Positions 7,266 through 27,730 of a stretch of 33,079 bases of DNA are shown here, piece after piece (the first letter of the stretch is position 1; each line of letters opens with the position of its first letter). The stretch comes from an uncultured Dehalococcoidales bacterium. GTDB lineage: Bacteria; Chloroflexota; Dehalococcoidia; Dehalococcoidales; CAYYQY01. Under the pieces are notes generated by a model. The model did no database searches and was not told the DNA's origin. It worked only from the letters and a program-made list of their open reading frames with translations. The translations under genes and the position numbers were made by a program. The stretch is from positions 1 to 33,079 of the forward strand of contig CAZMZA010000002.1 in the NCBI GenBank assembly GCA_964570635.1, written 5' to 3'.

Positions 7266-8765
7266 ATGGCTGACTCTATATATGAGCGTTTAAAGGCGAT
7301 TGCGGGTACTGAGAGAGTAAGTACGGAACCCGACATACTTAAGAAATACAGCCAAGACCAGAGCTTTGTCCGACCGGGCATGCCCGACTATGTTTTTTTC
7401 GCAGAAAATGTGCACGAAGTCGAAGAGGTGCTGAAAGCAGCCAATGACACCATGACCCCCGTCGTTCCTGTAAGTTCAGGTATGAATCTGCGAGGAGCGG
7501 CTATTCCCAAGGAGGGGGGGATTATACTGGACCTGTCTAGGATGAACAAGATTGGCCAGCTTAATGACCGTGAGGGATGGGTGGTCATTGAACCTGGCGT
7601 TACCTATAGTCAACTGTCTGAAGAGCTGGAGAAACACAATCTGAGGCTTATGATGCCTTTAGGTGTACCTGGCTCAAGGTCAGTCGTAACCAGCATCATG
7701 GAAAAAGACCCCACTCTTGCCAGTGCCAGCTTCGAATATGGCAACGCTCTTTTCATGGACATTGAGATTGTCCTGCCAGCAGGCTGGACCTGGAGAGTAG
7801 GCAAATGGCGGACGCGCATAGAAGGCGAATGGAGTCCTCCCGGCGGTGGGGGTAAGGTTACCACCAATCAGTATCCGTTGATGTGGGAAACAGTTCAAGG
7901 AAGTCTGGGGGTAATCAGCAGGCTGGTAGTAAAGGTTGAGTATTCAATACCCGAAGTTAGCAAAATCTTCGTCATTCCATTTGAAACATTGGAGGCAGCA
8001 ATAGAACCCCTGCGCCGAATCCAGAGAAAAGAGCTGGGTCTGGAGTGTTTCCTGCTGAACAATTTCAATCTGGCGGCGGTAAGGACAGAAGACTGGGACG
8101 TGCCCGAAAGATTCCCCTGTCCTAAGAGTGCCTCCGATGGATTCGATTCCCTCAGGGGCAGGTTACCAAAATGGACATTGGCGATTCACCTCGCCGGCCT
8201 TCCCTATTTCCCTGAAGAAAAAGTTGCCTATGAAGAAGAGGCCTTAAAGGCAGTCTGCAGTGAAATGGGCCTGCCCTTGGCGCAAACGGTAGCTGGAGAA
8301 GAAGGGCTGGAGGCAACTTTGCTCGATTTAATAATGCACCCCTGGCTGGCACTGAAGAAGGCTGGCTTTAAGGGGTCGTTCCATCCGGTCAGCTTTTACA
8401 CCACCTTGAGAAAAGCCCCGGAATTTGAAGAGGCTATTTCAGCCCTGGCGCAGGAACACGGCTATCCGGTTGGTGATATTGGCGGATACGTGTTGCCGAT
8501 AGAAAGGGGCAGGAATTGTTACCTTGAATTCGACTTCCACTGCGATTTGGAGAATCCCGGTGACGTGGAAAGGGTTAAAAATCTATGGCTACAAGCCAAC
8601 AGACTCTGTGCCGATAAGGGGGCAGTGCTGGCTAAGCCCTATGGCCCATGCGCCGACATAATTTACCGCAGGGTCGAAGCAACCTATGTGGATATACTTA
8701 GAAAGTGGAAGAGGGAGCTAGACCCAAACAACATAATGAATCCAGGACAACTATGTTTCTGTTAG
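7266..8765 (+). CDS. Module A1: FAD-linked oxidoreductase, VAO/GlcD family, short subunit (499 aa)
   Basis: FAD_binding_4-like region: PDYVFFAENVHEVEEVLKAANDTMTPVVPVSSGMNLRGAAIPKEGGIILDLSRMNKI...VVIEPGVTY. The C-terminal RELDPNNIMNPGQL motif is typical of the family. SD: GAAAGGAG. Confidence 0.9.
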   Translation: MADSIYERLKAIAGTERVSTEPDILKKYSQDQSFVRPGMPDYVFFAENVHEVEEVLKAANDTMTPVVPVSSGMNLRGAAIPKEGGIILDLSRMNKIGQLNDREGWVVIEPGVTYSQLSEELEKHNLRLMMPLGVPGSRSVVTSIMEKDPTLASASFEYGNALFMDIEIVLPAGWTWRVGKWRTRIEGEWSPPGGGGKVTTNQYPLMWETVQGSLGVISRLVVKVEYSIPEVSKIFVIPFETLEAAIEPLRRIQRKELGLECFLLNNFNLAAVRTEDWDVPERFPCPKSASDGFDSLRGRLPKWTLAIHLAGLPYFPEEKVAYEEEALKAVCSEMGLPLAQTVAGEEGLEATLLDLIMHPWLALKKAGFKGSFHPVSFYTTLRKAPEFEEAISALAQEHGYPVGDIGGYVLPIERGRNCYLEFDFHCDLENPGDVERVKNLWLQANRLCADKGAVLAKPYGPCADIIYRRVEATYVDILRKWKRELDPNNIMNPGQLCFC

Positions 8766-8776
8766 GGGAGGGATAG

Positions 8777-10036
8777 ATGCCCAAGAAAGAAGCGGAAAGA
8801 TACGAACTGGCAGAGAGAAAATATATAAGGGGAAGATTTAAGGAGCTAGAGGACTATAGAGAAGAGGCCTGGCATTGCAACCGGTGCAACATGTGCAAGG
8901 AAGTCTTCGGCTGGTACATGGAGAGCAACGAGTTTTCTGACATCTGCCCTGCTTTCGCCTTTCGTAAGTGGGACACCTACAGTGCTCAGGGCAAAATGCA
9001 TATCGCTCGCGCTCTGATAGATGAAGAAATGGGATGGGACGACTCGGAGCTTCTGCCTCAGATTATCTTTTCTTGTGATATGTGCGGAGGGTGCACCATC
9101 GAGTGTCTTCGGATAATGGAGAACAGCCCTCTAGAGGTGTTCAGGGCACTCCGTGCCCGCGCTCTGGAGAAAGGGCTGACCCCCACAGCGCATAAAAGAT
9201 TCTATGAGAGCACGATGAAGCATGGCAATCCTCTGGCAGCACCAAAGGAGGAGAGACTGACCTGGACCAAGGGGCTCGGCTTCAAGATTAAGACCCTGCC
9301 CCAGGAGCATGCCTCCGTACTACTATATACCGGCTGCCAGTACGAACTGGAACCCAGAGTCCGAGATACCCTTAAGAGTATTGCCCAGTTGTTGAAAGCC
9401 GGAGGAGTTGATTTTGGTTTCCTGGGAGCAGAGGAGAAGTGTTGTGGCGGCATACAGCTTCTAATGGGTGAAACGGGGATGTTTGAACAGCTGGCCAAGG
9501 ATAACATAAAGACGTTCAATGAGCTAGGGATAAAAACTCTAGTCACCCCCTGTGCCCACTGTTACAATACCTTCGTCAATGAGTACGTCGAGCTTGGGGA
9601 GCTGAATTTTGAAGTCCTCCACACCGTTCAGTTATTCGACCGGCTGATAGCCGAGAGGAAAATCAAACTGGTTGGGCTACCGAGGGAGGTGGTAACCTAC
9701 CACGACCCGTGTGACCTGGGGAGAAAGAGCGGCGTATATGACGCCCCGCGCCAGCTGCTTAATAACATCAAAGGGGTTGAACTGCGGGAGATGGAAAGGA
9801 TGAAAGACCAGACCTGGTGCTGTGGGGCCGGCGGTGGGCTGCTGGAAGCTTACCCGGACCAAGCCGGCTGGGCAGCACGAGAAAGGATTAAAGAGGCCAG
9901 GACCACTACTGGCGCCGAGACTCTGGTCACTGCCTGCCCTTGGTGCGAATACAGCCTTAAGAATGCCGCCGAAGCCACGGGGGCTAGAATAAAGATTAAC
10001 AATATCGCCGAAATCATCCAAAGAGCGTCAAAATAG
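8777..10036 (+). CDS. Module A2: HdrD/GlcF-like Fe-S protein (two ferredoxin-type Cys motifs plus two CCG domains)
   Basis: Ferredoxin-type motifs: CNRCNMC...ICP and CDMCGGCTIEC. CCG-domain motifs: YTGCQ, EEKCCGG, PCAHC, YHDPCDLGR, TWCCGAGGG and ACPWC. The gene starts 11 nt after A1. Confidence 0.9.
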   Translation: MPKKEAERYELAERKYIRGRFKELEDYREEAWHCNRCNMCKEVFGWYMESNEFSDICPAFAFRKWDTYSAQGKMHIARALIDEEMGWDDSELLPQIIFSCDMCGGCTIECLRIMENSPLEVFRALRARALEKGLTPTAHKRFYESTMKHGNPLAAPKEERLTWTKGLGFKIKTLPQEHASVLLYTGCQYELEPRVRDTLKSIAQLLKAGGVDFGFLGAEEKCCGGIQLLMGETGMFEQLAKDNIKTFNELGIKTLVTPCAHCYNTFVNEYVELGELNFEVLHTVQLFDRLIAERKIKLVGLPREVVTYHDPCDLGRKSGVYDAPRQLLNNIKGVELREMERMKDQTWCCGAGGGLLEAYPDQAGWAARERIKEARTTTGAETLVTACPWCEYSLKNAAEATGARIKINNIAEIIQRASK

Positions 10037-10047
10037 GGGGAGAATAA

Positions 10048-11817
10048 ATGGCAACAGAGAAAGCAAAGGTAGTGCCACAAAGATTGTCTCGAGAAGCCTA
10101 TCATGCTCTGGAAAGCGTCGTCGGCAAGGAATGGGTTACCGAGGATAGAGCCATCATCGAGGGGTATGTGGTTCACTGCGACGACGCCGGGGCTAGCCTG
10201 CGGCTTTTGCATAGGGACCCCAGGATGCGGCCGGCAGCCGTCGTTATGGCTGCCAGCACCGAGGAAGTGCAGGGAGTGGTCAGGGTAGCCAACCGGTATG
10301 GGCTTCCCATCGTCGCCGTCAGTAACATGCAACTGGCGAGCACACCACAGCTACCGAGAACAATAATGCTCAGTCTGAGGAGGATGGATAAAATCTGGGT
10401 GGATGAGGAAAACATGAGGATGACCGTCCAGCCCTTCATTGACTACTCGAAGATTCATCACGAAGGGGCAAAGAGGGGATTATGGCTCGGTGGTTCTGGC
10501 TGGCACGGTGCCATCGCCAAGCCCTGTTCTCAGTATGTAACCTACGGATTGTGGCAGTCAGACTTGAAATATTCCGGGCTGTCTAGGAGCACCCTGGGAG
10601 TGACCGTGGTTCTGGCGGACGGCAGTATCCTGAGGCTTGGCTCCTCGGTGATAAACGGAACTGACGAGGTTGCCTTCACGGAAACCTTCCCAGGGCCAAA
10701 CCTGATGGGGATGATTAAAGGCTCGTTTGGCGGGTGCAGGGGGATAGTCACCGAGGTAACCCTCAAACTCTACCCCTGGGCAGGAGGACACCCCTTCCCG
10801 GAGGATAGAGGACGCCCTTCCATTGAGCATTACTTCGAAGAGGCAAAGGAGAAAAAATTCGACCGGCCTCCAACTCACCCCAGGCACAAGATATTCTGGT
10901 TTGAATACCCTGACCTACCCAGCATGTGTGAAGGAACACTCCGATTGGCGCGCTCCGGGATAGGAGCCGCCGTCAATATGTGCGGTGATTACAATGCATC
11001 GATGTGCTCCTACACCATTGCTGAGGCCAATGAGCGCTCAAAAGGCTACTTCCACCTCTCGGGCTACATGGTCCTCATCGGTGTTTCGTCACAGAAGCAG
11101 CTAGAGTATGAGGAGAAAGTGCTAAGGCACATAGTCGCAGAAACGGGAGGCAAGCTGTGGTCGTCTAAATACAAGCCGGAACTTCTGGACGCGGTATCTC
11201 CCTGGAACGTAGAATACATCCTGAATACCGAGACCGGAATGCGGACCATTCGCAGCAACTATATTTCACAGATTCTCCCCCAGTATAGCCCGTTCAATCA
11301 ACCAATGGACACTTCGGAATTATGGAAGGAGATTGATAAGGAGTACGGAGTCATTGGTGAAGAAAGGGGAGAATATCACAGCCGAGTGAGCGAGGAGTGT
11401 CCCTACGGTTACATTGCCGACCGGGGTCATCAGATGATGACCGAGCTGGACCAATTTCCGGAACGGACCAGTGAAAAAGAAATGGTAGTCTGGATCCAAC
11501 AACTTATATACCTGCAGCTGGGTCTGATGAAGAAGGGATATCCTGGTTTCATTACTCTGGATGTGGGAGAACCCTGGACGAGTACCTGTCCCGAAATAGG
11601 CCCGGACACCTACATGCTACTGAGGGCGTATAAAGAGATAACAGACCCCAAGGGAGTTATAGCTCCACGAAGGGATGTGTACTTAAGGGACGAATTCAAA
11701 ACATTGATGAAAGAGCCAGGGACAATGCTGCGGCAAATATTTGCCATGAGAGACAGGTTTGGACTCCCCAAACTGGAGCTGACGCCAGAAGGGGATAGAT
11801 GGAAACCTACAGAGTAA
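10048..11817 (+). CDS. Module A3: divergent FAD_binding_4-family protein, long subunit (589 aa)
   Basis: RPAAVVMAASTEEVQGVVRVANRYGLPIVAVSNMQLAS...IMLSLRRMDKI...MTVQPFIDY follows the FAD_binding_4 layout but lacks the SxG glycine loop. Segments are shared with 14903 and 23209 (KLYPWAGG.., EYEEKVLRHIVAETGGK). The gene starts 11 nt after A2. Confidence 0.8.
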   Translation: MATEKAKVVPQRLSREAYHALESVVGKEWVTEDRAIIEGYVVHCDDAGASLRLLHRDPRMRPAAVVMAASTEEVQGVVRVANRYGLPIVAVSNMQLASTPQLPRTIMLSLRRMDKIWVDEENMRMTVQPFIDYSKIHHEGAKRGLWLGGSGWHGAIAKPCSQYVTYGLWQSDLKYSGLSRSTLGVTVVLADGSILRLGSSVINGTDEVAFTETFPGPNLMGMIKGSFGGCRGIVTEVTLKLYPWAGGHPFPEDRGRPSIEHYFEEAKEKKFDRPPTHPRHKIFWFEYPDLPSMCEGTLRLARSGIGAAVNMCGDYNASMCSYTIAEANERSKGYFHLSGYMVLIGVSSQKQLEYEEKVLRHIVAETGGKLWSSKYKPELLDAVSPWNVEYILNTETGMRTIRSNYISQILPQYSPFNQPMDTSELWKEIDKEYGVIGEERGEYHSRVSEECPYGYIADRGHQMMTELDQFPERTSEKEMVVWIQQLIYLQLGLMKKGYPGFITLDVGEPWTSTCPEIGPDTYMLLRAYKEITDPKGVIAPRRDVYLRDEFKTLMKEPGTMLRQIFAMRDRFGLPKLELTPEGDRWKPTE

Positions 11818-11976: not shown

Positions 11977-13128
11977 TTATTTTTTGTATCCAGTAACGAG
12001 GTTTCGGGCAATAGTCATTCGCTGCATCTCATCGGTGCCTTCATAGATTCCCGTAATCTTGGCATCGCGGAAATAGCGCTCCACAGCGTAATCCTTAATA
12101 TAACCATACCCTCCGAAAATCTGGATGGCCTTAGTAGTAACGAACATAGCTGCATCAGAAGCAAAAAGCTTGGCCATACACGCTTCTTTAATAAAAGGCA
12201 AGCCTTCGCTCTCGAGGTAGGCAGCCCGGTAGGTTAGCAAGCGAGCCGCGTCAATTTGGGTAGCCATGTCAGCCAGCATCCACTGAATTGCCTGGAAGTT
12301 AATAATCGGTTGACCAAACTGCTGGCGCTCCTGGGCATAGGCCAAACATTTATCAAAAGCCCCCTGAGCAATACCTGTCGCCTGAGCCGCGATGCCGGTC
12401 CGGCTGGAATCTATCGACTCAAGGGCAATCTTAAAACCCTGCCCTTCCTCACCTAGGCGATTTGCCTCGGGCACAAAGCAGTCTTGAAATATCAGCTCTG
12501 CTGTCGATGTGGCCCTTATACCCAGCTTATGCTCCAGCTTCCCCACGGAAAAACCGGGAGTACCTTTCTCGACAATAAAAGCGGTAATGCCTCGATGCCG
12601 CAATGACTTATCTATGGTGGCAAAAACGACTATGATTTCGGCTTCATCGCCGTTAGAGATAAAGAGCTTATTTCCATTGAGTATATATCCCCCCTTTTGC
12701 CGGGTGGCAGAAGTCTCCAGGGAGGCTACATCACTACCGGCACCAGCTTCGGTCAGGGCAAAACAGGCTATCTTTTCTCCTTTAGCCAGTGGAACGACGA
12801 AGCGCTGCCTTTGCGCCTCATCGCCAAAGCGGTATAAAGGTTGCCCGGCAAGTCCAACGGTTACGGCATAGATAGTGCCGATAGCTGCACACACACGTGA
12901 TATCTCTTCTCCAACAATGGTAAACTCAATCTTACTGCCGCCACTACCACCGTACTCCTCTGGGAAAGGGATGCCCATTAATCCAAGCTCAGCCATCTTC
13001 TTAATGCTCTCGGTGGGGAACCTGGCCTCTTCATCTATTTCAGCAGCAATTGGCTCAACTTCTTTGTTGGCCAGGTCCCGTACCATCGTCCTGAGCATCT
13101 TCTGTTCTTCGGTTAGTGAAAAATCCAT
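11977..13128 (-). CDS. Acyl-CoA dehydrogenase, short/medium-chain (butyryl-CoA dehydrogenase-like)
   Basis: Sequence: MDFSLTEEQKMLRTMVRDLANKEVEPIAAEIDEEARFPTESIKKMAELGLMGIPFPEEYGG...CFALTEAGAGSD...IFGGYGYIKDYAVERYFRDAKITGIYEGTDEMQ. I chose ATG 13128. Confidence 0.9.
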   Translation of the reverse strand: MDFSLTEEQKMLRTMVRDLANKEVEPIAAEIDEEARFPTESIKKMAELGLMGIPFPEEYGGSGGSKIEFTIVGEEISRVCAAIGTIYAVTVGLAGQPLYRFGDEAQRQRFVVPLAKGEKIACFALTEAGAGSDVASLETSATRQKGGYILNGNKLFISNGDEAEIIVVFATIDKSLRHRGITAFIVEKGTPGFSVGKLEHKLGIRATSTAELIFQDCFVPEANRLGEEGQGFKIALESIDSSRTGIAAQATGIAQGAFDKCLAYAQERQQFGQPIINFQAIQWMLADMATQIDAARLLTYRAAYLESEGLPFIKEACMAKLFASDAAMFVTTKAIQIFGGYGYIKDYAVERYFRDAKITGIYEGTDEMQRMTIARNLVTGYKK

Positions 13129-13265
13129 CGTTTTTACTCTCACCAAGAACCGTTACGTGAGTTGCCTCCTTCCTCAACTTGGTTGCCTGCGACAAATAGC
13201 AGAAAGACCCTGAGACAATTTCCCTAATCCGGTCTCTCTCAGGTGATTCTAAGTGTTAGAACTTT

Positions 13266-13444: not shown

Positions 13445-14776
13445 ATGAGTACTAAGCAGGACCATTATGACGTGGCTATTATAGGTTCGGGCATAGCGGG
13501 GATGTGTGCGGCAGCACTGTTAGCTCACGAAGGTTACAGAATCTTAGTAGCGGAGAAGTTAGCCCAGCTCGGGGGAAGGTGCTCCACTATCGAATACAAA
13601 GGGTTTAAGATTCCTTACCTAGCTCAGGAGAAACCACTCGCTGAATGGGGTGGAGTGGAGGGGGAGATTTTCAAAGAAGTGGGGGCTGATTTTGATGTTG
13701 TACCTCTACCCCCAATTGTTTACCGGATTAGAGGGAAGGACTATGAATTGCCGGAGCGGGGGCAACTCGCCTTCCTCCTTTCTCAATGTTGCCAGAATGA
13801 GACGGAATTTGACCGGATAAGAACCGCCCTGCGCAGAGCGAGGACATGGGCAGAACCCTCGAGTTCAATCTCTTTTCGTGACTGGCTCCTTCAGTACACG
13901 GATAATGAGATGGTCATCCTACTACTAGAGAACTTCTTATGTTCTTTGCTTATGATGCGGTCTCATGAAGCGCCAGCCAGGGATACCATCGGGTTCTATA
14001 AGGTTGGCCTAAGCCGGTGGGGCCATACCGGTCGTCCCCGTCTAGGTAACATAGCCCTTATGGAGTCGCTGGCCAAAGTCATACGGGGAAGAGGCAGCGA
14101 GATTTGGACATGCTCACCGGTGAAACGGATTCTGACATCGGGCGGGACAGTAAAAGGGATAGTGGTGGATAAAGAGGGAGACGAGGTTGAAGTAACGTCG
14201 AAGGCAGTTATTAGCAATGCGGGGCCTAGGGAGACAGCGACGTTAGTGGGGGAACAGAATTTGGACCGGGGGTATGTCAGAGAGCTGGAGGAGAATATCC
14301 ATCACGGTTCCCAAATGCTGATTTCTTTTGTCAGTGATAGACCTCTTATGACAAATGCTGGTGGTCTGGCGACAGTCGGGGCACGCCGGGTAGTAAATAT
14401 TTCCTGTCTGACACTTTCTTGCCCGGAATTATCTCCTCCCGGGAAATACCTGCACACGGCACAGTGTCAGCCAAGATCGCAATTTACGCTATTGGACCGT
14501 AGTCAAGAAATCGAAGCTGCAATGGAGGATTTGAGGGAGCACGTGCCGGGATTCGATAAATATGCCGAAGTATTAAACATCTCGTGCATGTTCAACCCGG
14601 ACTGGCCGGGCTATCGCAACCTATCAGGCTACCATCTACCTCTAAAGACGCCTATAGAGAACCTCTACAACGTAGGAGACGGCGTGTGTTTCTTCCCTGA
14701 AGGTCCTTATGCGGCTACTACGAGTCGGTCGGTGGTGGACGACCTGAAGCAACGCTCGAAACCTGGGGAGACATAA
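13445..14776 (+). CDS. Module C4: CrtI/phytoene-desaturase-family FAD-dependent oxidoreductase (443 aa)
   Basis: The N-terminal dinucleotide fold is YDVAIIGSGIAGMCAAALLAHEGYRILVAEKLAQLGGR. The C-terminal NLYNVGDG motif is typical of COG1233-type proteins. Confidence 0.8.
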   Translation: MSTKQDHYDVAIIGSGIAGMCAAALLAHEGYRILVAEKLAQLGGRCSTIEYKGFKIPYLAQEKPLAEWGGVEGEIFKEVGADFDVVPLPPIVYRIRGKDYELPERGQLAFLLSQCCQNETEFDRIRTALRRARTWAEPSSSISFRDWLLQYTDNEMVILLLENFLCSLLMMRSHEAPARDTIGFYKVGLSRWGHTGRPRLGNIALMESLAKVIRGRGSEIWTCSPVKRILTSGGTVKGIVVDKEGDEVEVTSKAVISNAGPRETATLVGEQNLDRGYVRELEENIHHGSQMLISFVSDRPLMTNAGGLATVGARRVVNISCLTLSCPELSPPGKYLHTAQCQPRSQFTLLDRSQEIEAAMEDLREHVPGFDKYAEVLNISCMFNPDWPGYRNLSGYHLPLKTPIENLYNVGDGVCFFPEGPYAATTSRSVVDDLKQRSKPGET

Positions 14777-14902: not shown

Positions 14903-16462
14903 ATGCCCCTGGATGGCAAGGTGTATAAAGTACTTGAGGACATCGTCGGGCCGGAGAATATATCACAAGAGCCGGCAATACTGGATACCTATGCTTACCA
15001 AATGGGGACAAGGGCACTCCCAAGCCGGGTATGGATGGTACGACCCGAAGCCGTGCTTCTGCCAGGTAGCGTCGAGGAAGTCCAAGCTATAGTTAAAACA
15101 TGTGGCAGATACGGGATAAGGTTTAAGGCAATTAGTACTGGCTTTGTAACCGCGGCCAATGTTGGTGGTGAGGGAGCAGTCCAGCTGGACCTGCGCCGGA
15201 TGAACCGCATTCTGGAGTTAAACGAGAGAGACAGGTACGCGCTAGTGGAACCGTATGTTAGCTGGATTCAACTTCAAGCTGAAGCCATGAAGAAGGGGTT
15301 GAACTGCAATACAATAGAGGCCGGTGGTCAGTGCTCGGTACTGGCCAGCTGTACCTCTGGCTGGGGAATGGGCGGAAAATCAATAGCCATGGGGTACAAT
15401 GAACGAAACGTGCTGGGCGTGGAATGGGTTTTACCCACCGGGAATATCCTGAGGCTAGGCTCGGTGGGGGCTGGAGCGGGCTGGTTCTGCGGTGACGGTC
15501 CGGGACCGAGCCTGAGGGGCGTGATGAGAGGTCATATTGGTGCCTTCGGCGGGCTGGGCGTGTTTACCAAGGTCGCCGTCAAACTGTACCACTGGTCAGG
15601 ACCTCCCGATTTTTTCCCAATTAAGGGAGTATCACCAGTATATGAAGCCGAGCTACCCTCTACCGTTAGAAACTACTACTGCTTCTTCACTAACTGGGAG
15701 AACTTTGCTAATGCCGGGATTAAGATAGGTGAGGCTGAAATAGCTACCGAATTTCAGAAGGTCACCCCGATTATGCTTGCCCTGATGACGTCGACAAGCA
15801 ATCAGGAGTTTTCCCAAATATACCCGATGATAAAAAATCTGGTAAAGGGACCTGGCTTTCAAATTGTTATCATGGCAGACTCTGAAAGGGAATTTGAATA
15901 TAAGGAAAAGGTATTAATGCAGATTTTAGCCGAGACAGGCGGCAAAAACCTGGCTCTGGTAGCTCATGAACTTATGCAAAGCCGGGTAATTCCTCAGACG
16001 GAAAAGGTGAGCACGATTGGCCGGGGAGTTTTCCGCGGCTCGGGCACATTCACATCGACCATGGGAGGTATGGACACCTGGGATTTGGCGGTGGCAGAGA
16101 CCAAAATAGGAACTGACATTAAGAAGAAGTACGTTGAGAGAGGCGTAGTAGTGGATGACGGCGTTGAGAATGCCTGGGCGATACTGTATGAGGACGGTAA
16201 CTTCGGGCATGCTGAAATGGTCAACTATTACGACCCCGCCGACCCGGCATCGCGCAGGGAGTTTGAGCAAGCCATGTCTGAGACGAATGACGCTATGATA
16301 AGCGAGTGCCTCGGGACTCCGTTCGCAGCTGGGGGTGACCGGATGGCAGACTTTCTCGGACCACATATTATGAACTACCACCACTGGCTGCGAAAGATTA
16401 AGAAAGCCTTTGACCCCGGTGTAGCCGCTGATGCCGCCGCTTACGTCAAGCTAAAAGAATAG
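14903..16462 (+). CDS. Module C3: FAD-linked oxidoreductase, VAO/GlcD family (519 aa); paralogue of the long subunits
   Basis: RPEAVLLPGSVEEVQAIVKTCGRYGIRFKAISTGFVTAANVGGEGAVQLDLRRMNRI..ALVEPYVSW. Shares KLYHWSGPPDFFPIKG and EYKEKVLMQILAETGGKNL with 10048 and 23209. SD: GAGAGGAGG. Confidence 0.85.
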   Translation: MPLDGKVYKVLEDIVGPENISQEPAILDTYAYQMGTRALPSRVWMVRPEAVLLPGSVEEVQAIVKTCGRYGIRFKAISTGFVTAANVGGEGAVQLDLRRMNRILELNERDRYALVEPYVSWIQLQAEAMKKGLNCNTIEAGGQCSVLASCTSGWGMGGKSIAMGYNERNVLGVEWVLPTGNILRLGSVGAGAGWFCGDGPGPSLRGVMRGHIGAFGGLGVFTKVAVKLYHWSGPPDFFPIKGVSPVYEAELPSTVRNYYCFFTNWENFANAGIKIGEAEIATEFQKVTPIMLALMTSTSNQEFSQIYPMIKNLVKGPGFQIVIMADSEREFEYKEKVLMQILAETGGKNLALVAHELMQSRVIPQTEKVSTIGRGVFRGSGTFTSTMGGMDTWDLAVAETKIGTDIKKKYVERGVVVDDGVENAWAILYEDGNFGHAEMVNYYDPADPASRREFEQAMSETNDAMISECLGTPFAAGGDRMADFLGPHIMNYHHWLRKIKKAFDPGVAADAAAYVKLKE

Positions 16463-19489: not shown

Positions 19490-19492
19490 ACC

Positions 19493-21439: not shown

Positions 21440-21486
21440 TTTTCTTTCCCCTTTCGTCACCCTCCCTGACATCGCACAGGCGGAGG

Positions 21487-23064
21487 CTACTGAGCTATTA
21501 CCTTCTTAAAATCGATGTCTAGGTCCTCCATTACCACTTGAACAGCGGCTCTGCCACCGCCGGTTACTCCACCGCCGGGATGGGTACTTGCTCCGCACAT
21601 GTAGAGGTTCTTCACCGGGGTTCTGTAGCTGCCCCAGCCCGGGAGGGGGCGGTTGCTGAGGTATTGATTTAAGAAGGAGCCTATATGGTTGAGGTCTCCA
21701 TGGACGAAAGCCGGATTATCCCTCTCAATATCGATAGGACTGGCTATCCACCTACCCAGAATGTTGTCCGGGCCCAAGTTTGTGGTATACTCCCGTGCCG
21801 TCTCCAGAACGGCATCGGCGACCTCCTGTTTTATTTCATCCCACCTACTTGGTCCTCCGTCCTTCAGGTTATAGGGTTCGTAGTGATAAAGGTAAAGGGT
21901 ATGTTTTCCCTCCGGGGCACGGGTGGGGTCGACGAGAGTGCAACACATCAATAGTGGCATTTTGGCATTAGTAATACCGTACATATATTCATCAAAAGAC
22001 TTCAGGTAGTCCTCCATGAAAGGACAAATCTCCACAAACCAGGTCTTGTCAACATCTCCGCCCGCCTTCCATTTTGGCGCCTCATTGAGGGCAAAGGCCT
22101 GGTTCATAGGGGCGAAACTGCTGTGTCGGATATTCTTGACTCTGTCCACAAAACCCGACGGCAGCTCATCGGGTTTTAGCAGTTCAAGGAAGAGCTGCTT
22201 AACATTTAGATTGGACACGACAGCTTTTCTGGCCTTAATCTCCTCGCCTGTACCCAGGACCACCGCCCTGGCACTACCGCCTTCAACCTTAATGCCCTTT
22301 ACCGGGCTTGAAAGCCTCACTGTACCTCCGTTATCCTTTATGACGGCTTCGAGCCGTTCGCTTACGGCTCCTGAGCCGCCCTCAGGCACTGAGAACCCCC
22401 AGTTGTGAATGAACGGTACCATACCCAGTGCGTAGGTTCCCGTTCCTTTCTCTTGAGGAGCAATCATAGACTCAGAGGCAAATCTGGTTAGCGCTATTTT
22501 CACCTGTTCGCTCTCAAACCAGTTTTCTGCCAAGTCTCCGGCACTGCCCAAGATTATGTTCAAGACCTCCCGGCCTTCCTCGCTCGAATCCAGCAGGTAT
22601 ACCAGACGGCCAAAGGTAGGTGCCGGGGAGAACATGGCCCAGGTTCCGGCACGGATCAGCTTCTGGCAAGCCTCAACGTACCGGTAATAGGTCTCAGCAT
22701 CTCGCTGGGAGAACTGCGCTATAGATTCGCATGTCTTATCAATTTCCTTGTGAAAAATTAGCGCCCTGTTATCGGGGAAGACAACAGCGAGCTGTGGGTC
22801 TGTGGGGATATACTTGAGCCCGTATTTAGACCTAAGGCCTAACTCATCCCGATGGAGGAGCGGGTTACTGGTGAGGACTCCATGAATAACAGAGTGCGGG
22901 TCGTGCTTGAAACCCGGCAGAGTCAATTCCCTGGTAATGACCCCGCCGCCGACTTTATCATTCCCCTCCACCACACAAACATCCAGCCCGGCTTTAGCCA
23001 AATAAGCGGCCACAATTAAGCCATTGTGCCCCCCGCCGATTACTACCACATCATGTTCGTTCAT
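21487..23064 (-). CDS. Module B4: CrtI/phytoene-desaturase-family FAD-dependent oxidoreductase (525 aa)
   Basis: Sequence: HDVVVIGGGHNGLIVAAYLAKAGLDVCVVEGNDKVGGG...NLYMCGASTHPGGGVTGGGR. I chose ATG 23064, which follows the SD GAGGAGG. Confidence 0.85.
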   Translation of the reverse strand: MNEHDVVVIGGGHNGLIVAAYLAKAGLDVCVVEGNDKVGGGVITRELTLPGFKHDPHSVIHGVLTSNPLLHRDELGLRSKYGLKYIPTDPQLAVVFPDNRALIFHKEIDKTCESIAQFSQRDAETYYRYVEACQKLIRAGTWAMFSPAPTFGRLVYLLDSSEEGREVLNIILGSAGDLAENWFESEQVKIALTRFASESMIAPQEKGTGTYALGMVPFIHNWGFSVPEGGSGAVSERLEAVIKDNGGTVRLSSPVKGIKVEGGSARAVVLGTGEEIKARKAVVSNLNVKQLFLELLKPDELPSGFVDRVKNIRHSSFAPMNQAFALNEAPKWKAGGDVDKTWFVEICPFMEDYLKSFDEYMYGITNAKMPLLMCCTLVDPTRAPEGKHTLYLYHYEPYNLKDGGPSRWDEIKQEVADAVLETAREYTTNLGPDNILGRWIASPIDIERDNPAFVHGDLNHIGSFLNQYLSNRPLPGWGSYRTPVKNLYMCGASTHPGGGVTGGGRAAVQVVMEDLDIDFKKVIAQ

Positions 23065-23141
23065 CACCCCTCCTCGGATTCTGTAATTCGTGAAGTAACC
23101 ATACCAGAAACCGAAGGCATTCCTCCATGCCCATCTGGTGT

Positions 23142-23208: not shown

Positions 23209-24918
23209 CTACTTCCCCCGATTGCCCTGCCACGGCCTTGCCGCCATCTCCCTTACCGTCTCCTTACACTCCTCACTTATTACCGGCACTTCGGGAGGAA
23301 CCCCCTCCAGCACCATATCTATGACGTAGGGCCAGTTACAACCGGACAGAGCACTGGGGTCGAACTCCTTCTTGAACCGGTCAATCCAGACAGGAAAGTT
23401 TTGTTTTGCTGGTCCAAAAGTCTTCATGGAGTGAATCTGAGCATCGAAGATACTCTGGCAGCCACACCTTACGTTAATCGTTTGCCCCTCGCTCAGCTGC
23501 CACTGCATCACAAATCTCAGGTCCACATCCGGGTCAAACTCAGGGTCCTCAGGGTCAGTCTTCTTGGGGTCGGGGAATCCGTGTTCCTCCATATAATGAA
23601 TACGCCCTAAGTTCCAGACAGCGAACCAGGGAAGGTCGCCCTTCTGGTCAAAATGGTCTGATTTATGGGGATTTTCAGCCAGCCTCCTGGCAAACTCCCG
23701 TATCGAGTACTGAGTGCATTTCCAGCTCTCTGAACCGGCATCGGTCAGCCCAAAAGACCCGCTCGGCATCCACATATCGGCCGTATTGGCGTATAGGAAG
23801 CTAGCTTCGTCCGTCTGGGGAGTACGGCGAATAGTGCCACCGCATTCGTTTACGATGTCTTCCAAGACCCGCATCTCATAGTCCATATGCTCCTGAGAGG
23901 TGCGACCTATGAGCAGCACTCGAAGAATGTGGGTCTTGGCTACCTCCTCAGGTGTCACCGCCTCCCAGCTTTCCCAGAAGGTATTCCTGAAGTCCCGGTT
24001 GCCCCGGGCCTTGGCAATAGACCTCCAGTAAGCGGGTACAATGTTTATGGCAGCCCCGATTTGAGCCCTTGTTATCTCCTGTATTGCCTTCATCAAGGCT
24101 TCTTCACTGGGGAAGGTAACGTTCTGCCAACTTACCCTTGACGGAAACTCGACACAGGTATTAGGTCCCGTGCCAGCGGGTTTAAGCTCCTCTGGTTGAA
24201 ACGGGTAGAGCTTGGTTGAGACTTTGGTGAAGATGCCCATGCCCCCTACCCACCAGGAGCTACCTTTCAGCAGCCCGATGGTGCTGGGTCCCAGCCCATC
24301 ATGGTAATAACCGTTCTCATCACTATCCACAAGCGACCCCATCCGGTATATCTCCCCCTCCGGGCTGACCCATTCCACACCATTCACCCGGCGAATGCTG
24401 ACAGTGGTTATCCGATAGCAAAGGTGCCCCTGACCCTGATGGAAGGCATTAATTGCCACTGATACCACGCCGCCACCCCCGGGGGTGACGCTGGTCATGT
24501 CCCTCCTCAGGATTTCGCTCTGGAGCTGGAAATAGGTTACCCCTGCTCCCAGGACGGCAAACATGTTCTTGTCATCGATAAACATGTCATTCAGCCGTCT
24601 CAGGTCAATCTCAACGGCATCCTGGCGAAAGGAAGGACTGGCATTGGCTACGGTATGCTGGCTCATTGGGACATACGGAATATTATGGCGGTTGCACACC
24701 TTAACTATGGCGGCAACCTGCTCCGTGTTCTCGGGCCTGACGATGCAGGCTGCCAACTGGTTTACTCCGTGATAAAACAGTACCTCTCTCACGCATCCGG
24801 AACCAGCCAGAGCCCGCCTGTAGACAGGGTCGGTGGTGATATACTCCGGTCCAACGATAGCTTCTAGCTCCCGGCAAATCTCCTCAGATATATGCTCAAA
24901 ATCTGCGACACCCTTCAT
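23209..24918 (-). CDS. Module B3: divergent FAD_binding_4-family protein, long subunit (569 aa)
   Basis: LAACIVRPENTEQVAAIVKVCNRHNIPYVPMSQHTVANASPSF..VEIDLRRLNDM. Shares KLYPFQPEELKPAGTG and DYEMRVLEDIVNECGGTIRR with 10048 and 14903. SD: GGGAGG. Confidence 0.8.
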   Translation of the reverse strand: MKGVADFEHISEEICRELEAIVGPEYITTDPVYRRALAGSGCVREVLFYHGVNQLAACIVRPENTEQVAAIVKVCNRHNIPYVPMSQHTVANASPSFRQDAVEIDLRRLNDMFIDDKNMFAVLGAGVTYFQLQSEILRRDMTSVTPGGGGVVSVAINAFHQGQGHLCYRITTVSIRRVNGVEWVSPEGEIYRMGSLVDSDENGYYHDGLGPSTIGLLKGSSWWVGGMGIFTKVSTKLYPFQPEELKPAGTGPNTCVEFPSRVSWQNVTFPSEEALMKAIQEITRAQIGAAINIVPAYWRSIAKARGNRDFRNTFWESWEAVTPEEVAKTHILRVLLIGRTSQEHMDYEMRVLEDIVNECGGTIRRTPQTDEASFLYANTADMWMPSGSFGLTDAGSESWKCTQYSIREFARRLAENPHKSDHFDQKGDLPWFAVWNLGRIHYMEEHGFPDPKKTDPEDPEFDPDVDLRFVMQWQLSEGQTINVRCGCQSIFDAQIHSMKTFGPAKQNFPVWIDRFKKEFDPSALSGCNWPYVIDMVLEGVPPEVPVISEECKETVREMAARPWQGNRGK

Positions 24919-24936: not shown

Positions 24937-26229
24937 TTACTTCACAATAGCTTCGGCTATTAGTTCAGTAATGTCATACACCTTCATGCCTTTTTTGGCG
25001 GCATCGGTGAAGTTTTCCTTACACCCGGGACAAGCTGAAACAATCCCCTCAGCACCAACGGTAGCTGCTTCCCGCAGCCTCTCTCCCGCCGTCCACAAGG
25101 AAAAGTCGGTGAAGGCTTCCTTGACACCAGCCTCATGCCCGCAGCACCAGGCATGGTCGCGGCGGCGCAGCATTTCCACCAGCTCGACGCCGGGGATGGC
25201 TCTAAGTATATCCCTCGGTTGCTCATAGACACCGCTGGTACCCCGTCTGACCTCGCGAGGTGGGTCCAGCCTGCCCATCTGGGCAACTACCCCCTCCCAG
25301 GGAATCCAGGGCTCACTGAGCCGCCCCAGGTTGCACGAGTCGTGGTAGGTCAGCTTCATGTCAATCCTGTTCCCCAGCTTGAGCTTGCCCTCCTTGACCC
25401 ACTGGTCAGCCAGCTCGGTAATGTGGACCGGCTCAAAACCCAGGTCTGCGGTAGCGAAACCTAAGAGCTTGGGGTAGTCAACCTTTACTGCCTTGTAGCC
25501 CTCGGCACAGCTAAAGACGACCGTCCTGGCGCCAGTATCCCTCAATAATTTGAGGTTGCTCTCAGCCAGCTTCCTCGCCTTTTCTATCTGCCCGGTAGTG
25601 AATAGGAAGTGACCGCAGCACGGCTCGTCCTTCATTATCATGAAGTCAGCACCAGCGGCATTTAAGATTCTTACTGTTGCCACCGCAATCTCAGTACTAA
25701 CAAGGTCGGCTCGGCAGCCGACGAAGTAGAGGATATCCGCTTTGCCGGCAGGACTGACATCCTTTGGCATCCAGCCTAGCCGCTTCGTCTGGGGCAAACC
25801 GTAGCGGTTATGGCGGCTCTCTATGTTATTTGTTATGGGTACGTGTTGCGGCATAGGTCCGTACCCCTCCTCCACCATCCTTGCCCTGAGTGATTCAAGC
25901 ATTAACTGGATTTCGTGGTCCAGGTTGCGCTTGCAACCAGTATCACAGGCACCGCACAGCAGGTCTTTATAAACCACTTCCTGAAGCGTAGGACTAGAGT
26001 AGTCCATCTTCCCCTTCAGCAGGTCATAGACCAGGTTGCATTTGCCCATGGCACCATAAGCATTGTCTAGCTCATTCTGCCAAGCAGGACATCTCCAGGA
26101 AAAGTCTATGCCTCTAGCATAATTGAGGTCTATCCACCGGCAGTGCTGTTGCCCATCGCAATGCCTCGCCTCATATATATAATCATCAAGGTTCAGTCCC
26201 AGTTTAATTTGCTTTTTTCCCTCGGCCAT
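24937..26229 (-). CDS. Module B2: HdrD/GlcF-like CCG Fe-S protein (430 aa)
   Basis: Cys motifs: CGACDTGC, YFVGCR, DEPCCGH, SCAEG, YHDSCNLGR, AWCCGHEAG and ACPGC. The first ferredoxin motif is altered to HCDGQQHC...RCP. SD: AGGAGGG. Confidence 0.9.
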   Translation of the reverse strand: MAEGKKQIKLGLNLDDYIYEARHCDGQQHCRWIDLNYARGIDFSWRCPAWQNELDNAYGAMGKCNLVYDLLKGKMDYSSPTLQEVVYKDLLCGACDTGCKRNLDHEIQLMLESLRARMVEEGYGPMPQHVPITNNIESRHNRYGLPQTKRLGWMPKDVSPAGKADILYFVGCRADLVSTEIAVATVRILNAAGADFMIMKDEPCCGHFLFTTGQIEKARKLAESNLKLLRDTGARTVVFSCAEGYKAVKVDYPKLLGFATADLGFEPVHITELADQWVKEGKLKLGNRIDMKLTYHDSCNLGRLSEPWIPWEGVVAQMGRLDPPREVRRGTSGVYEQPRDILRAIPGVELVEMLRRRDHAWCCGHEAGVKEAFTDFSLWTAGERLREAATVGAEGIVSACPGCKENFTDAAKKGMKVYDITELIAEAIVK

Positions 26230-26266
26230 TCCAGCCCTCCTTTACGGGTTATTAACTTGGCAAATA

Positions 26267-27730
26267 TCAAAAGCATAGCTTGCCTGGATTCAATATACCG
26301 TTGGGGTCAAAGTGCTTCTTAAACCTCTTCAGTAGTGAGGCATATTCATCGTGCTTCTTGTAGACCATGCCAGATATCATGCCATACGGGCGGTTGAAGT
26401 AAGCGCCCCTGTCCAACACCGCAGCTACCGCCTCAGCATAGACCTGGCGAACTTTGTCCTTCTCCGCCTCATCATCCGGGTTATAGTAGAGGTTGAACTG
26501 AAGCTGACAAGCATGCCCATCCTGAATCGGCTGGACGTAGCAGCCTATGTCCCCTGCTGGATACCGGTATTTGGCAGCGACCTCGGCTACCGCCGGGATA
26601 TACCTCTCCACACGCTCTAAGGTGGTTATGAAGGTGAGGTCCTGGCAGCCACCCTTGTAGGCATGTTTCCAATAGGTTCTGTCCTTGGGCCACGGTTTAC
26701 GCAGCATTTCGGGCAGCTTCTTCTCCACAGCATCCAGCCCAGGCAAAGAAGTCAGAAGCTTCAGGTTGCGGTGTTTTGACATCATCTCCCGCAGGAAATT
26801 CTCCTGATAGGCTATTTTCTCCTCTGGGCGACGGTGCAGGGCACTAGAAACCAGGATAACCGTCCAGGGTGGTAAGGTTGCTCTAAGCTGCTCAAACTGC
26901 TCTGGCCACTTCTCAGTAAGTATAGTGGCCAGATTCAGGTTATTGAGGAGCAGACACTCGTTACATACCCCGCGCCTCAATAACTGATACAACGGCTCAA
27001 TAGTGTCCTCCGCCCTGTCTGCGGGAATAAAGAAGGTCTTGGTGAGGGTTGGTATTTCCTCAAATAGAACCACTCCCCATAGCACCAGGCCCATCGTCCC
27101 CTGGGCACCATATAGAAATGTGTCATAGCTCATCGGGCCGGGACCCGTTGGGCTGATACCATCAGCCAGGACGCCTTCAGTGCGAAAGCCACCTATGCCC
27201 GCCGAACCGGTGACAAAATGCTCTCCGTTTCCCCAGATGACCTCCAGACTCATCAGGGGCTCAGCGTATTCATAGTTCTGAACCACTGGCTGCTCTCTTT
27301 CCAGCCAGTCCATAATCACCGACCTTGAGGCGTGAGGAAGCAGGGGGATTATGCCCCGGTATCCCTTAGCTTCCAGTGCCGTCTGGAATTGCTCCCAGGT
27401 CACACCGACCTGCAAGTGGGCTGCCTTTACATCGTCTATTATCTCAACAATGCGGTTCATCCCTGAGAGGTCGAGAACAACCCCTTCTTGTTTCGGCACG
27501 GCTCCCCCATTAAAGTGAACCCCGGAACTCTGGGGAATGACAGCAAATTTAGCCTCATTAGCCAGCTGAACGACTTTCTGGGCCTCGGCCACAGTTCTGG
27601 GGCGCACCACACAGGTGAATGAACCCGGTGGTTCTATGCTGATATCCCTACCATAGCGCTCTATGGCCTCCGGGGAATCCAAGACATTGTCCTTACCTGC
27701 AATCTCTACCAGTTGGTCTTTAATCGCCAT
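26267..27730 (-). CDS. Module B1: FAD-linked oxidoreductase, VAO/GlcD family, short subunit (487 aa)
   Basis: FTCVVRPRTVAEAQKVVQLANEAKFAVIPQSSGVHFNGGAVPKQEGVVLDLSGMNRI, with the C-terminal motif KHFDPNGILNPGKL. It is a clear paralogue of 7266..8765. SD: GGAGG. Confidence 0.9.
   Translation of the reverse strand: MAIKDQLVEIAGKDNVLDSPEAIERYGRDISIEPPGSFTCVVRPRTVAEAQKVVQLANEAKFAVIPQSSGVHFNGGAVPKQEGVVLDLSGMNRIVEIIDDVKAAHLQVGVTWEQFQTALEAKGYRGIIPLLPHASRSVIMDWLEREQPVVQNYEYAEPLMSLEVIWGNGEHFVTGSAGIGGFRTEGVLADGISPTGPGPMSYDTFLYGAQGTMGLVLWGVVLFEEIPTLTKTFFIPADRAEDTIEPLYQLLRRGVCNECLLLNNLNLATILTEKWPEQFEQLRATLPPWTVILVSSALHRRPEEKIAYQENFLREMMSKHRNLKLLTSLPGLDAVEKKLPEMLRKPWPKDRTYWKHAYKGGCQDLTFITTLERVERYIPAVAEVAAKYRYPAGDIGCYVQPIQDGHACQLQFNLYYNPDDEAEKDKVRQVYAEAVAAVLDRGAYFNRPYGMISGMVYKKHDEYASLLKRFKKHFDPNGILNPGKLCF

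Follow-up and report, generated by a model that had tools for sequence, protein, structure and literature searches.

A stretch of DNA of 33,079 nucleotides from an uncultured Dehalococcoidales bacterium (hereafter the window) holds two complete gene modules, each encoding a short flavoprotein (S), a CCG iron-sulfur protein (F) and a long flavoprotein (L), and one partial copy, C3. On our best reading, the modules add new paralogous members to a family of GlcDEF-like oxidoreductases that was described only recently. We consider it fairly probable that each module encodes a flavin/iron-sulfur oxidoreductase of three subunits on the GlcDEF pattern and belongs with the "Magic" proteins #24–26 of ORM2a and their BzS1 counterparts. 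An earlier sequence-only reading had also proposed a heteromeric flavin/iron-sulfur dehydrogenase, which we judge the most reasonable view. We infer the heterotrimer, as do the two reports on the family (PMC13101534, PMC13416013).

Gene content and paralogy of the modules

The window genes considered here are as follows.

7266..8765, + strand: A1, short VAO-fold flavoprotein of module A (499 aa, 55.9 kDa; Pfam FAD_binding_4 and FAD-oxidase_C)
8777..10036, + strand: A2, HdrD/GlcF-like iron-sulfur subunit of module A (419 aa; Pfam Fer4_8 and two CCG)
10048..11817, + strand: A3, long VAO-fold subunit of module A (589 aa, 66.8 kDa; Pfam FAD_binding_4 only)
11977..13146, – strand: acyl-CoA dehydrogenase, convergent with A3 (all three ACAD domains found; local context)
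13445..14776, + strand: second CrtI-like flavoprotein, directly upstream of C3 (Pfam NAD_binding_8 and Amino_oxidase; local context)
14903..16462, + strand: C3, orphan long-type subunit (519 aa; Pfam FAD_binding_4 only)
19493..21472, – strand: tungsten/molybdenum AOR-family oxidoreductase, downstream of the CrtI-like gene (Pfam AFOR_N and AFOR_C; local context)
21487..23067, – strand: CrtI/CrtO-like flavoprotein, downstream of B3 (Pfam Amino_oxidase; local context, outside the conserved module)
23209..24918, – strand: B3, long VAO-fold subunit of module B (569 aa, 64.2 kDa; Pfam FAD_binding_4 only)
24937..26229, – strand: B2, HdrD/GlcF-like iron-sulfur subunit of module B (430 aa, 48.2 kDa; Pfam two CCG; partly degenerate)
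26267..27730, – strand: B1, short VAO-fold flavoprotein of module B (487 aa, 54.8 kDa; Pfam FAD_binding_4 and FAD-oxidase_C)

The sequence-only reading had given these positions and lengths for the seven reading frames of the modules and C3 and had named their domains; both hold, the latter by the Pfam scan it had asked for. Adjacent genes of module A are 11 nt apart in both cases; in module B the spacing is 37 nt and then 18 nt. A further 141 nt separate B3 from the CrtI-like gene, and 14 nt separate that gene from the AOR gene. C3 has no short or iron-sulfur partner of its own in the window.

Subunits of the same type are related across the window. A1 and B1 share 32% identity over 505 aa (E = 1e–82), A2 and B2 31% (E = 8e–63), and A3 and B3 26% (E = 4e–26); C3 is 27% identical to A3 (E = 6e–33) and 26% identical to B3 over 534 aa (E = 1e–39). 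The paralogy claimed earlier for the short, iron-sulfur and long subunits is thus borne out (26–32% identity, E = 4e–26 to 1e–82), and every peptide string then quoted as shared is present in the translations. Judged from these alignments, the paralogy between the modules is real and old. Both module A and C3 belong to other clades of the family than module B, as separate and older paralogues.

Among the neighbours, the CrtI-like protein downstream of B3 scores 298 bits against the NCBIfam CrtO-like model (cut-off 1000), has phytoene desaturase 4dgk as its top PDB match (E = 2e–17) and is 26% identical to the second CrtI-like protein. PDB matches of the AOR-family protein to AORs and to BamB are similar in strength (E = 1e–55 to 1e–62).

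Kinship with proteins of anaerobic benzene degraders

In 2026, relatives of the modules were reported to be the most abundant proteins in bacteria that degrade benzene anaerobically (PMC13101534, PMC13416013): "Magic" proteins #24–26 of Ca. Anaerobenzenivorax ORM2a (WAC08368–70; PMC13101534) and the "putative benzene dehydrogenase" BzS1_12970/80/90 (488/431/577 aa; PMC13416013, section 3.5). Since the module has been described in these organisms, the family is not a new discovery, a point of which the sequence-only reading was unaware; the same architecture is in both papers. As in the window, the genes are consecutive and run in the order short flavoprotein, Cys-rich iron-sulfur protein, long flavoprotein, with Pfam FAD_binding_4 plus FAD-oxidase_C, then CCG, then FAD_binding_4 only. 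The BzS1 sizes are near-identical to those of module B (487/430/569 aa) and module A (499/419/589 aa).

The link of the window proteins to BzS1 and ORM2a runs via shared database matches, at 43–49% identity to both sides. The Chloroflexota trio MFC1869739–41 is the best match of the BzS1 trio outside the benzene clade (48.9/48.2/45.8%; PMC13416013, Table S4). B1, B2 and B3 are 64.5, 61.9 and 43.6% identical to MFC1869739.1, MFC1869740.1 and MFC1869741.1 (our P0403), B1 over its full length and B3 over 566 aa. Similarly, MCX8126348.1 (our P0418) is 43.4% identical to BzS1_12990 (PMC13416013) and 43% identical to B3. Module B is in the Chloroflexota clade nearest the benzene clade. However, the window proteins fall outside the benzene clade itself, whose true members share 63–89% identity (PMC13416013). 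The window also differs in its host, which belongs to Chloroflexota and not to Desulfobacterota or Pelotomaculum, in having two full paralogues plus an orphan long subunit, and in its lack of flanking CoA-transferase, MaoC, AMP-ligase and Bam genes.

Subunits and conservation of the trio

The AF2 model of A1 (pLDDT 86) has a complete VAO fold, which Foldseek aligned over its full length with p-cresol methylhydroxylase (PCMH), vanillyl-alcohol dehydrogenase and LDHD at 18–21% identity. That of A3 (pLDDT 81) shows a complete two-domain VAO fold, and the homology of A3 with the short family extends along the entire protein (hhalign of the L and S families: probability 100, E = 1e–59, 473 columns); a motif (E/D)RG(R/H)...E.D is common to both in the profile alignment. 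FAD-binding loops are well conserved in S, whereas L diverges faster. The long family has no conserved FAD diphosphate loop, and L may for this reason not bind FAD. In a neighbour-joining tree, S and L each form a clade with matching subclades (A1 with A3, B1 with B3), and C3 groups with Asgard-archaeal proteins. Moreover, natural fusions of 960–1066 aa join two VAO-fold units: the N-terminal half of P0628 aligns along A1 and its C-terminal half matches the long-subunit profile, and P0526 and P0611 each carry two FAD_binding_4 stretches. These fusions support a predicted physical association of S and L.

A2 retains all 18 cysteines of its family (2 × 4 ferredoxin-type and 2 × 5 CCG-type). Like HdrD/TfrB/GlpC/DsrK-type proteins, it has ferredoxin-type four-Cys motifs and complete CX(n)CCGX(m)CXXC domains, two of each, and it matches PDB 9ojn, an "iron-sulfur-binding reductase" (E = 2.5e–47); its best NCBIfam match is to the C-terminal part of TfrB, far below the TfrB cut-off. 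Unlike those proteins, the iron-sulfur subunits of the modules are paired with VAO-fold proteins, and no Pfam domain for a membrane or haem b part is found in the modules. B2 has lost three of the 18 cysteines, with Q27, D89 and G244 in their place.

A profile search with the long subunit returned 898 clusters (50% identity) at E ≤ 1e–30, and A1 has orthologues in Chloroflexota at up to 75–85% identity. S-F-L order was found in 35 of 67 related loci from three phyla (Chloroflexota, Bathyarchaeia and Thermodesulfobacteriota); a conserved three-gene unit, widespread in anaerobes, is supported. A larger conserved neighbourhood, in which a CrtI-like and an AOR gene follow the trio, had been proposed at first, and only its S-F-L part stands. 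A CrtI-like gene adjoins one of the 67 loci and an AOR gene two (L010 and L066), and around the orthologues nearest to module B (83% and 59%) the genes are quite unlike those in the window. ACAD genes recur at L065 and L068, and UbiD-family (de)carboxylase genes adjoin B-type trios at L066 and L067. These variable catabolic neighbours (AOR, CrtI-like desaturases, ACAD, UbiD, CoA-transferase, AbfD-like, TRAP/CoA-ligase) point to aromatic, alicyclic or other organic-acid catabolism, and to different substrates for different paralogues. Because they vary from locus to locus, context indicates no single substrate.

Alternative readings and proposed mechanism

E. coli GlcDEF likewise combines two VAO-fold subunits with a CCG iron-sulfur subunit, and the AlphaFold 3 heterotrimer of the "Magic" proteins resembles it overall (PMC13101534). 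One could expect the modules to be ordinary GlcDEF-type dehydrogenases for glycolate or D-2-hydroxyacids (D-lactate), with their genes in an unusual order; the NCBIfam models that fit best are glcD and GlcF/GlpC/TfrB, Foldseek and HMM searches both place mouse LDHD among the top matches, and source annotations label relatives "glycolate oxidase". We regard this as highly improbable. The glcD and GlcF equivalog scores are far under the cut-offs (34–74 versus 568 and 34–35 versus 333 bits), BLASTP identity to E. coli GlcD (21–30%) covers the FAD domain only, and GlcE, of only 350 aa, is matched by A3 (30% over 81 aa) but not by A1, B1, B3 or C3. Identity to GlcDEF is 21–26% over part of the length, E. 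coli GlcD and GlcE fall outside the S and L clades, and the glc gene order is D-E-F. Of the three LDHD metal ligands (His, His, Glu), A1 matches just one, with H425, and Arg stands at the Glu position; LDHD also has a G-T-G-x-G loop where the short subunit has S-S-G-x-N, as do eugenol oxidase (EUGO) and PCMH. That loop, of S-S/T-G-x-N type, and the VAO fold are shared with PchCF and the VAO group. In structure A1 best matches PCMH, vanillyl-alcohol dehydrogenase and eugenol oxidase, and these enzymes also rank among its top profile matches. The modules might thus be anaerobic counterparts of PCMH or vanillyl-alcohol dehydrogenase that convert a 4-alkylphenol or benzylic substrate to alcohol and aldehyde, with the iron-sulfur subunit as acceptor in place of cytochrome c and the adjacent AOR oxidizing aldehyde to acid. 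An AOR adjoins the trio in the window, L010 and L066, and the UbiD genes beside B-type trios would also fit. However, such an AOR neighbour is rare, identity to 4-phenol oxidoreductases is only 17–21%, and the phenolate-binding pair Y473-R474 of PchF is A-K in A1 and N-R in B1, at positions that vary across the family. The modules also have a second VAO-fold and an iron-sulfur subunit, no cytochrome c subunit and no indication of covalent flavinylation, and we think this reading unlikely. Overall, the earlier claim is upheld that neither GlcDEF nor D-lactate dehydrogenase nor PchCF is orthologous to the modules.

Given its 62–65% (S, F) and 44% (L) identity to the best match of BzS1_12970/80/90 outside the benzene clade, and subunit masses nearly equal to those of BzS1 (54.3/48.4/65.7 kDa; PMC13416013), module B could be a functional equivalent of the proposed benzene-activating flavoprotein, its host activating benzene or another unactivated arene without oxygen. 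At L066, this best-matching trio lies beside two UbiD genes and, like its "Magic" counterpart, beside a class III CoA-transferase gene. Nevertheless, this is very unlikely, as module B is far below the identity among true benzene-clade members, a domain scan of the window found none of the "Magic" partner genes (MaoC, CoA-transferases, AMP ligase, BamQ), and its 83% and 59% orthologues are flanked by genes that bear no relation to them. Syntenic homologues (23–42%) occur in NaphS2 and Desulfosarcina variabilis, neither of which uses benzene, and other functions were concluded for them; the benzene role of the BzS1 and ORM2a proteins is itself only putative, and with toluene the BzS1 proteins reach the same abundance (PMC13416013). 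The substrate of the window modules is probably not benzene. It is also quite unlikely that the complex is an electron-bifurcating, confurcating or redox-neutral flavoenzyme with ETF/Hdr partners instead of a simple dehydrogenase. An analogy to bifurcation is discussed for BzS1, where EtfAB is abundant (PMC13416013). Each module has two flavoprotein subunits and an Hdr-like one, and at L002 an A-type trio directly precedes genes for ETF beta/alpha, a CCG iron-sulfur oxidoreductase and an HdrA-like protein; yet Pfam finds no NAD(P)- or ferredoxin-binding domain in the three subunits, and the window has no ETF genes. Nor is any VAO-fold enzyme known to bifurcate without an ETF.

In our main reading, that of a GlcDEF-like dehydrogenase, we infer that the subunits form a complex and contain flavin, and also which acceptor takes the electrons and in which direction the reaction runs. 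An organic substrate would be dehydrogenated at a flavin in the S/L pair, and electrons would pass through the clusters of F, predicted from its HdrD/GlcF-like make-up of two ferredoxin-type [4Fe-4S] motifs and two CCG domains, to a quinone or an ETF/Hdr-type acceptor. L probably sets substrate specificity, because it is the most variable subunit yet strongly constrained within each orthologue group.

Two paralogous trios and an orphan long subunit

Module A and module B each consist of a short flavoprotein, an iron-sulfur protein and a long flavoprotein, and one further long flavoprotein (C3) stands apart from both. All ORF coordinates and lengths of the sequence-only reading were reproduced by the ORF list, and a Pfam scan found its flavoprotein and CCG assignments in both modules:

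7266-8765 (+): A1, short flavoprotein, 499 aa, FAD_binding_4 and FAD-oxidase_C
8777-10036 (+): A2, iron-sulfur protein, 419 aa, two CCG domains and Fer4_8
10048-11817 (+): A3, long flavoprotein, 589 aa, FAD_binding_4 alone
13445-14776 (+): CrtI/amine-oxidase-type flavoprotein, first of two
14903-16462 (+): C3, orphan long flavoprotein, FAD_binding_4 alone
21472-19493 (-): AOR
23067-21487 (-): CrtI/amine-oxidase-type flavoprotein, second of two
24918-23209 (-): B3, long flavoprotein, 569 aa, FAD_binding_4 alone
26229-24937 (-): B2, iron-sulfur protein, 430 aa, two CCG domains
27730-26267 (-): B1, short flavoprotein, 487 aa, FAD_binding_4 and FAD-oxidase_C

Pairwise BLASTP bore out the proposed paralogy for the short subunits (A1/B1, 32 % identity, E 1e-82), the iron-sulfur subunits (A2/B2, 31 %, E 8e-63) and the long subunits (A3/B3, 26 %, E 4e-26; A3/C3, 27 %, E 6e-33; B3/C3, 26 %, E 1e-39). 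Judged by their sequences, the modules are old paralogues and not the product of a recent duplication. The genes between them are small and unrelated (DUF2178, RDD, an RRM protein and a zinc-finger protein); hence, modules A and B are separate operons on opposite strands. The last two of these genes encode a 105-aa RRM-domain RNA-binding protein (18309-18626, -) and a 114-aa double treble-clef zinc-finger protein (18940-19284, -).

Several other genes of the window were recorded. At 1986-5892, a LuxR-type response regulator and a GAF histidine kinase (+) adjoin a cytochrome b561 (Ni_hydr_CYTB) and a Fer4_11 four-cluster protein (-). The latter pair resembles the membrane and electron-transfer subunits of a respiratory oxidoreductase, with no obvious catalytic subunit within the window. 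A 796-aa protein with a beta-lactamase-fold domain, DUF3471 and a weak PepSY match is encoded at 28270-30660 (+). The segment 30719-33071 (-) holds a 545-aa FAD_binding_2 flavoprotein of the fumarate-reductase/KstD-like type, preceded by a 228-aa 2Fe-2S and 4Fe-4S protein that ends near the window edge. The AOR is not specifically a BamB (class II benzoyl-CoA reductase): its matches to AORs and to BamB are of the same order (E 1e-55 to 1e-62).

Subunit folds and the distinction from GlcDEF

AF2 models of A1 (pLDDT 86) and A3 (pLDDT 81) are confident, and Foldseek aligns both nearly full length with VAO-fold enzymes (TM 0.6-0.8, probability 1.0), among them PCMH, vanillyl-alcohol dehydrogenase, eugenol oxidase (EUGO), mouse LDHD and AGPS, at 14-21 % identity. 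Both models have the two-domain FAD-binding and cap fold of the VAO/PCMH superfamily. Since A3 aligns over nearly its full length, the long subunit has the whole two-domain VAO fold and is not a truncated GlcE. Querying the PDB with only the C-terminal half of A1 gave no useful match, and a profile search was needed. In profile-profile comparison the homology between short and long families extends over 473 columns (probability 100, E 1e-59, 18 % identity), and both carry an (E/D)RG(R/H)...E.D motif at the site of the metal-binding HxGDGNxH of LDHD. A P-x-S-S-G-x-N-x-x-G loop, resembling the S-T-G-K/R-N loop of EUGO and PCMH, is retained in the short family; the corresponding FAD loop of the long family is not conserved. 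Alignment columns average 61 % identity in the short family and 42 % in the long one.

In a neighbour-joining tree, short and long subunits form separate clades with parallel subclades (A1 with A3, B1 with B3), and E. coli GlcD, GlcE and generic GlcD-like proteins fall outside them. The family comprises at least three co-evolving short/long clades. In the same tree C3 clusters with proteins of Asgard archaea (Jordarchaeia, Freyarchaeota, Helarchaeota), apart from A3 and B3, and a Hecatellales locus (L009) carries a C3-type gene in another order, Fe-S, long, short. The long-subunit profile retrieved 898 clusters (50 % identity) at E <= 1e-30 and 9,243 at E <= 1e-10. Three of the homologous proteins, of 960-1066 aa (P0628, P0526 and P0611), contain two FAD_binding_4 stretches each and two VAO-fold units. 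The N-terminal half of P0628 aligns to A1 over its length and its C-terminal half matches the long-subunit profile. These proteins look like natural fusions of short-like and long-like VAO-fold units, and lend independent, though distant, support to a physical association of the two flavoprotein types.

The sequence-only reading had set the modules apart from GlcDEF, and equivalog scores, BLASTP and gene order all agree with it. Against NCBIfam equivalogs the proteins reach 74 bits for glcD (cut-off 568) and 34 bits for GlcF (cut-off 333). E. coli GlcD, GlcE and GlcF give only partial BLASTP matches of 21-30 %, and GlcE has no BLASTP match in four of the five window flavoproteins. The GlcDEF genes run D-E-F, whereas the modules run short, Fe-S, long. 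Assignment to the LDHD/D2HGDH type was rejected as well: in low-identity HMMER alignments only H425 of A1 falls on one His of the His-His-Glu metal site, the motif region reads ERGRxxYxEFDFH, and the LDHD Glu aligns with an Arg. As for 4-phenol oxidoreductases (VAO/PCMH), the counterparts of the PchF pair Y473-R474 are A456-K457 (A1) and N-R (B1), both at sites that are variable across the family, and neither module contains a gene for a cytochrome c partner like that of PCMH.

A2 has all 18 family cysteines, eight being ferredoxin-type (two CxxCxxCxxxC) and the others forming two complete five-Cys CX(n)CCGX(m)CXXC motifs. A2 thus has the full HdrD-like CCG pattern and B2 (24937-26229, -) only part of it. 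In B2, three of the 18 family cysteines, each 89-100 % conserved, are replaced: Q27 and D89 stand in the two ferredoxin-type motifs, one per motif, and G244 stands in the first CCG domain. Protein #25 of ORM2a, a benzene-degrading member of the Desulfobacterota, likewise lacks some cysteines (Toth et al., PMC13101534).

A conserved trio in varying gene neighbourhoods

Genomes were scanned with a narrower A3-type alignment, the 19-sequence alignment of all long types being too diverse, and the scan is biased to A3-type loci. Metagenomes or MAGs are the source of every homologue of A3, A1 and B3; those with a named source belong to Chloroflexota/Dehalococcoidia, Bathyarchaeia, Asgard archaea and Thermodesulfobacteriota. 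The order short, Fe-S, long on one strand was found in 35 of the 67 related loci fetched, which upholds the trio as a conserved unit. Eight further loci contain only the Fe-S and long genes and are cut by a contig edge; in the remainder the arrangement differs (short-long, long-short or long-short-long). Several paralogues occur in genomes of Chloroflexota, Bathyarchaeia and Thermodesulfobacteriota, and several Thermodesulfobacteriota MAGs supply 2-4 loci apiece. One Chloroflexota MAG (GCA_042575365.1) carries two trios, at L002, which holds a 75-79 % orthologue of module A, and at L066; hence, multi-paralogue genomes are typical of the lineage.

The sequence-only reading had joined CrtI-like and AOR genes to the trio in one neighbourhood, and this part of it failed: among the 67 loci an AOR-family neighbour occurs in two (L010, L066), a CrtI-like one in one (L034) and an ACAD in two. 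What stands is a conserved, probably heterotrimeric dehydrogenase family distinct from GlcDEF. Close relatives of B3 differ in what follows them. An 83 % orthologue (L067) precedes a nitrilase-family gene, UbiD, isochorismatase and amidohydrolase, and a 59 % orthologue (L068) precedes ACADs and HpaB/AbfD-like genes. Around the B-type trio of L066 (1-21698) lie genes for a class III CoA-transferase and an SDR, together with two of the UbiD family and two for AORs. TRAP transporter genes occur at L065, along with a CoA ligase, a B12/radical-SAM protein and an ACAD. The A-type trios vary too: 3-hydroxyacyl-CoA dehydrogenase and SDR genes lie near archaeal L001 and L003, thiolase and ChsH2-like genes near archaeal L001 and L004, and ETF, CCG-protein and HdrA-like genes follow the trio in Chloroflexota L002. 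As neighbours differ even between the closest relatives, the conserved entity is the trio, which looks like a module plugged into differing catabolic contexts.

Relation to the proteins of anaerobic benzene degraders

The activation of benzene without oxygen is a decades-old question, and two independent 2026 studies make this flavoprotein family the prime suspect (PMC13101534, PMC13416013). In ORM2a, adjacent genes encode the three most abundant proteins; these are a FAD-binding oxidoreductase, an (Fe-S)-binding protein and a FAD-binding oxidoreductase, and AlphaFold 3 predicts a GlcDEF-like heterotrimer (Toth et al., PMC13101534). Their orthologues in a marine sulfate reducer, BzS1_12970/80/90 (488/431/577 aa; 54.3/48.4/65.7 kDa), account for roughly a fifth of the proteome detected during growth on benzene, and for nearly that share on toluene (Musat et al., PMC13416013). 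The BzS1 short subunit has a PCMH-type FAD domain and a FAD-linked oxidase C-terminal domain, the long one an N-terminal FAD domain only, and the middle one two Cys-rich domains (PMC13416013). This description matches the window proteins exactly, sizes are comparable, and both modules share the arrangement of three adjacent co-oriented genes for short FAD, Cys-rich Fe-S and long FAD proteins. The family is thus already in the 2026 literature, and the window contributes probable new paralogous members from a Chloroflexota. Our searches found no literature on GlcD/HdrD/CCG proteins in Dehalococcoidia, or on VAO proteins with heterodisulfide reductase.

We linked the window proteins to BzS1 and ORM2a indirectly, through shared database relatives in Table S4 of PMC13416013 (top 100 BLAST hits). 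One such relative, MFC1869741.1 (P0403), is 44 % identical to B3 and 45.8 % to BzS1_12990. Its neighbours MFC1869739 and MFC1869740, at 48.9 % and 48.2 % to BzS1_12970 and BzS1_12980, are the best outside the benzene clade among the top 100 listed. These three proteins form the L066 trio, to which B1/B2/B3 are 64.5/61.9/43.6 % identical over full length and A1/A2/A3 35/34/28 %. A second relative, MCX8126348.1 (P0418), is 43 % identical to B3 and 43.4 % to BzS1_12990, and genes adjoining P0400, P0381 and P0469 are also listed in the table. The links through Table S4 and the identities to L066 would place module B within that clade of Chloroflexota proteins which lies closest to the benzene clade; module A and C3 would represent further clades of this flavoprotein family.

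The window locus is not itself a member of the benzene clade. Membership of that clade (BzS1, ORM2a, Pelotomaculum BPL, AUK045) calls for at least ~63 % identity and for synteny with CoA-transferase, MaoC, beta-oxidation and Bam genes. The best link of the window runs through a 46-49 % outgroup, and none of these partner genes lies within the window. Homologous proteins P0050, P0051 and P0425 were ruled out as benzene-clade loci by their gene context. NaphS2 and Desulfosarcina variabilis, which do not use benzene, have syntenic homologues at 23-42 % identity, for which the authors conclude other functions (PMC13416013). The size of the family, its several paralogues per genome, the three or more clades and the varying catabolic neighbours argue for a general core chemistry, of which benzene is no more than one specialisation.

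In each module the three proteins would form a complex in which a flavin of the short/long pair takes a hydride from an organic substrate and the Fe-S subunit, in the way proposed for GlcDEF, hands the electrons on to either a quinone or an acceptor of the ETF/Hdr type. Conservation is lower in the long subunit than in the other two (B3 44 % versus B1/B2 62-65 % to the L066 proteins), and many polar and aromatic residues of the long subunit are invariant within one orthologue group. Being the least conserved between groups, yet with many invariant residues within one, the long subunit is favoured as the probable specificity-determining part. The AOR, CrtI-like and ACAD genes nearby would fit oxidation of a compound via an aldehyde or acid, then desaturation; this context is not conserved. 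A further-reaching reading makes the long subunit the exchangeable specificity or catalytic part of a general, oxygen-independent C-H activating flavoenzyme platform, with Chloroflexota paralogues such as module B attacking unactivated aromatic or alicyclic hydrocarbons without oxygen. We consider this very unlikely; if true, benzene-type activation chemistry would reach well beyond the few known Desulfobacterota and Pelotomaculum degraders. As non-benzene paralogues, modules A and B are possible targets for studying the basic reaction, the flavin and iron-sulfur content and the electron acceptor, and they offer comparison sequences for spotting what sets the benzene clade apart.

In the Thermodesulfobacteriota loci (L010-L061), recurrent neighbours of the trio are DUF1329/LolA-like, YCF48/BNR, MMPL and DUF1302 proteins. 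The annotated members of the "Nanopod" cluster of ORM2a are DUF1329, YCF48-related and MMPL proteins (Toth et al., PMC13101534). The same set of loci also encodes a geranylgeranyl-reductase-like FAD_binding_3 protein (12 loci), TetR (8 loci) and a ferredoxin-dependent bilin-reductase-like protein (8 copies in 4 loci). Some members of the 90 % identity cluster of P0090, a 549-aa long-type flavoprotein, are named "photosystem II stability/assembly factor-like" (YCF48) by IMG, which suggests either a clustering artefact or, in some contigs, miscalls or fusions of adjacent genes.
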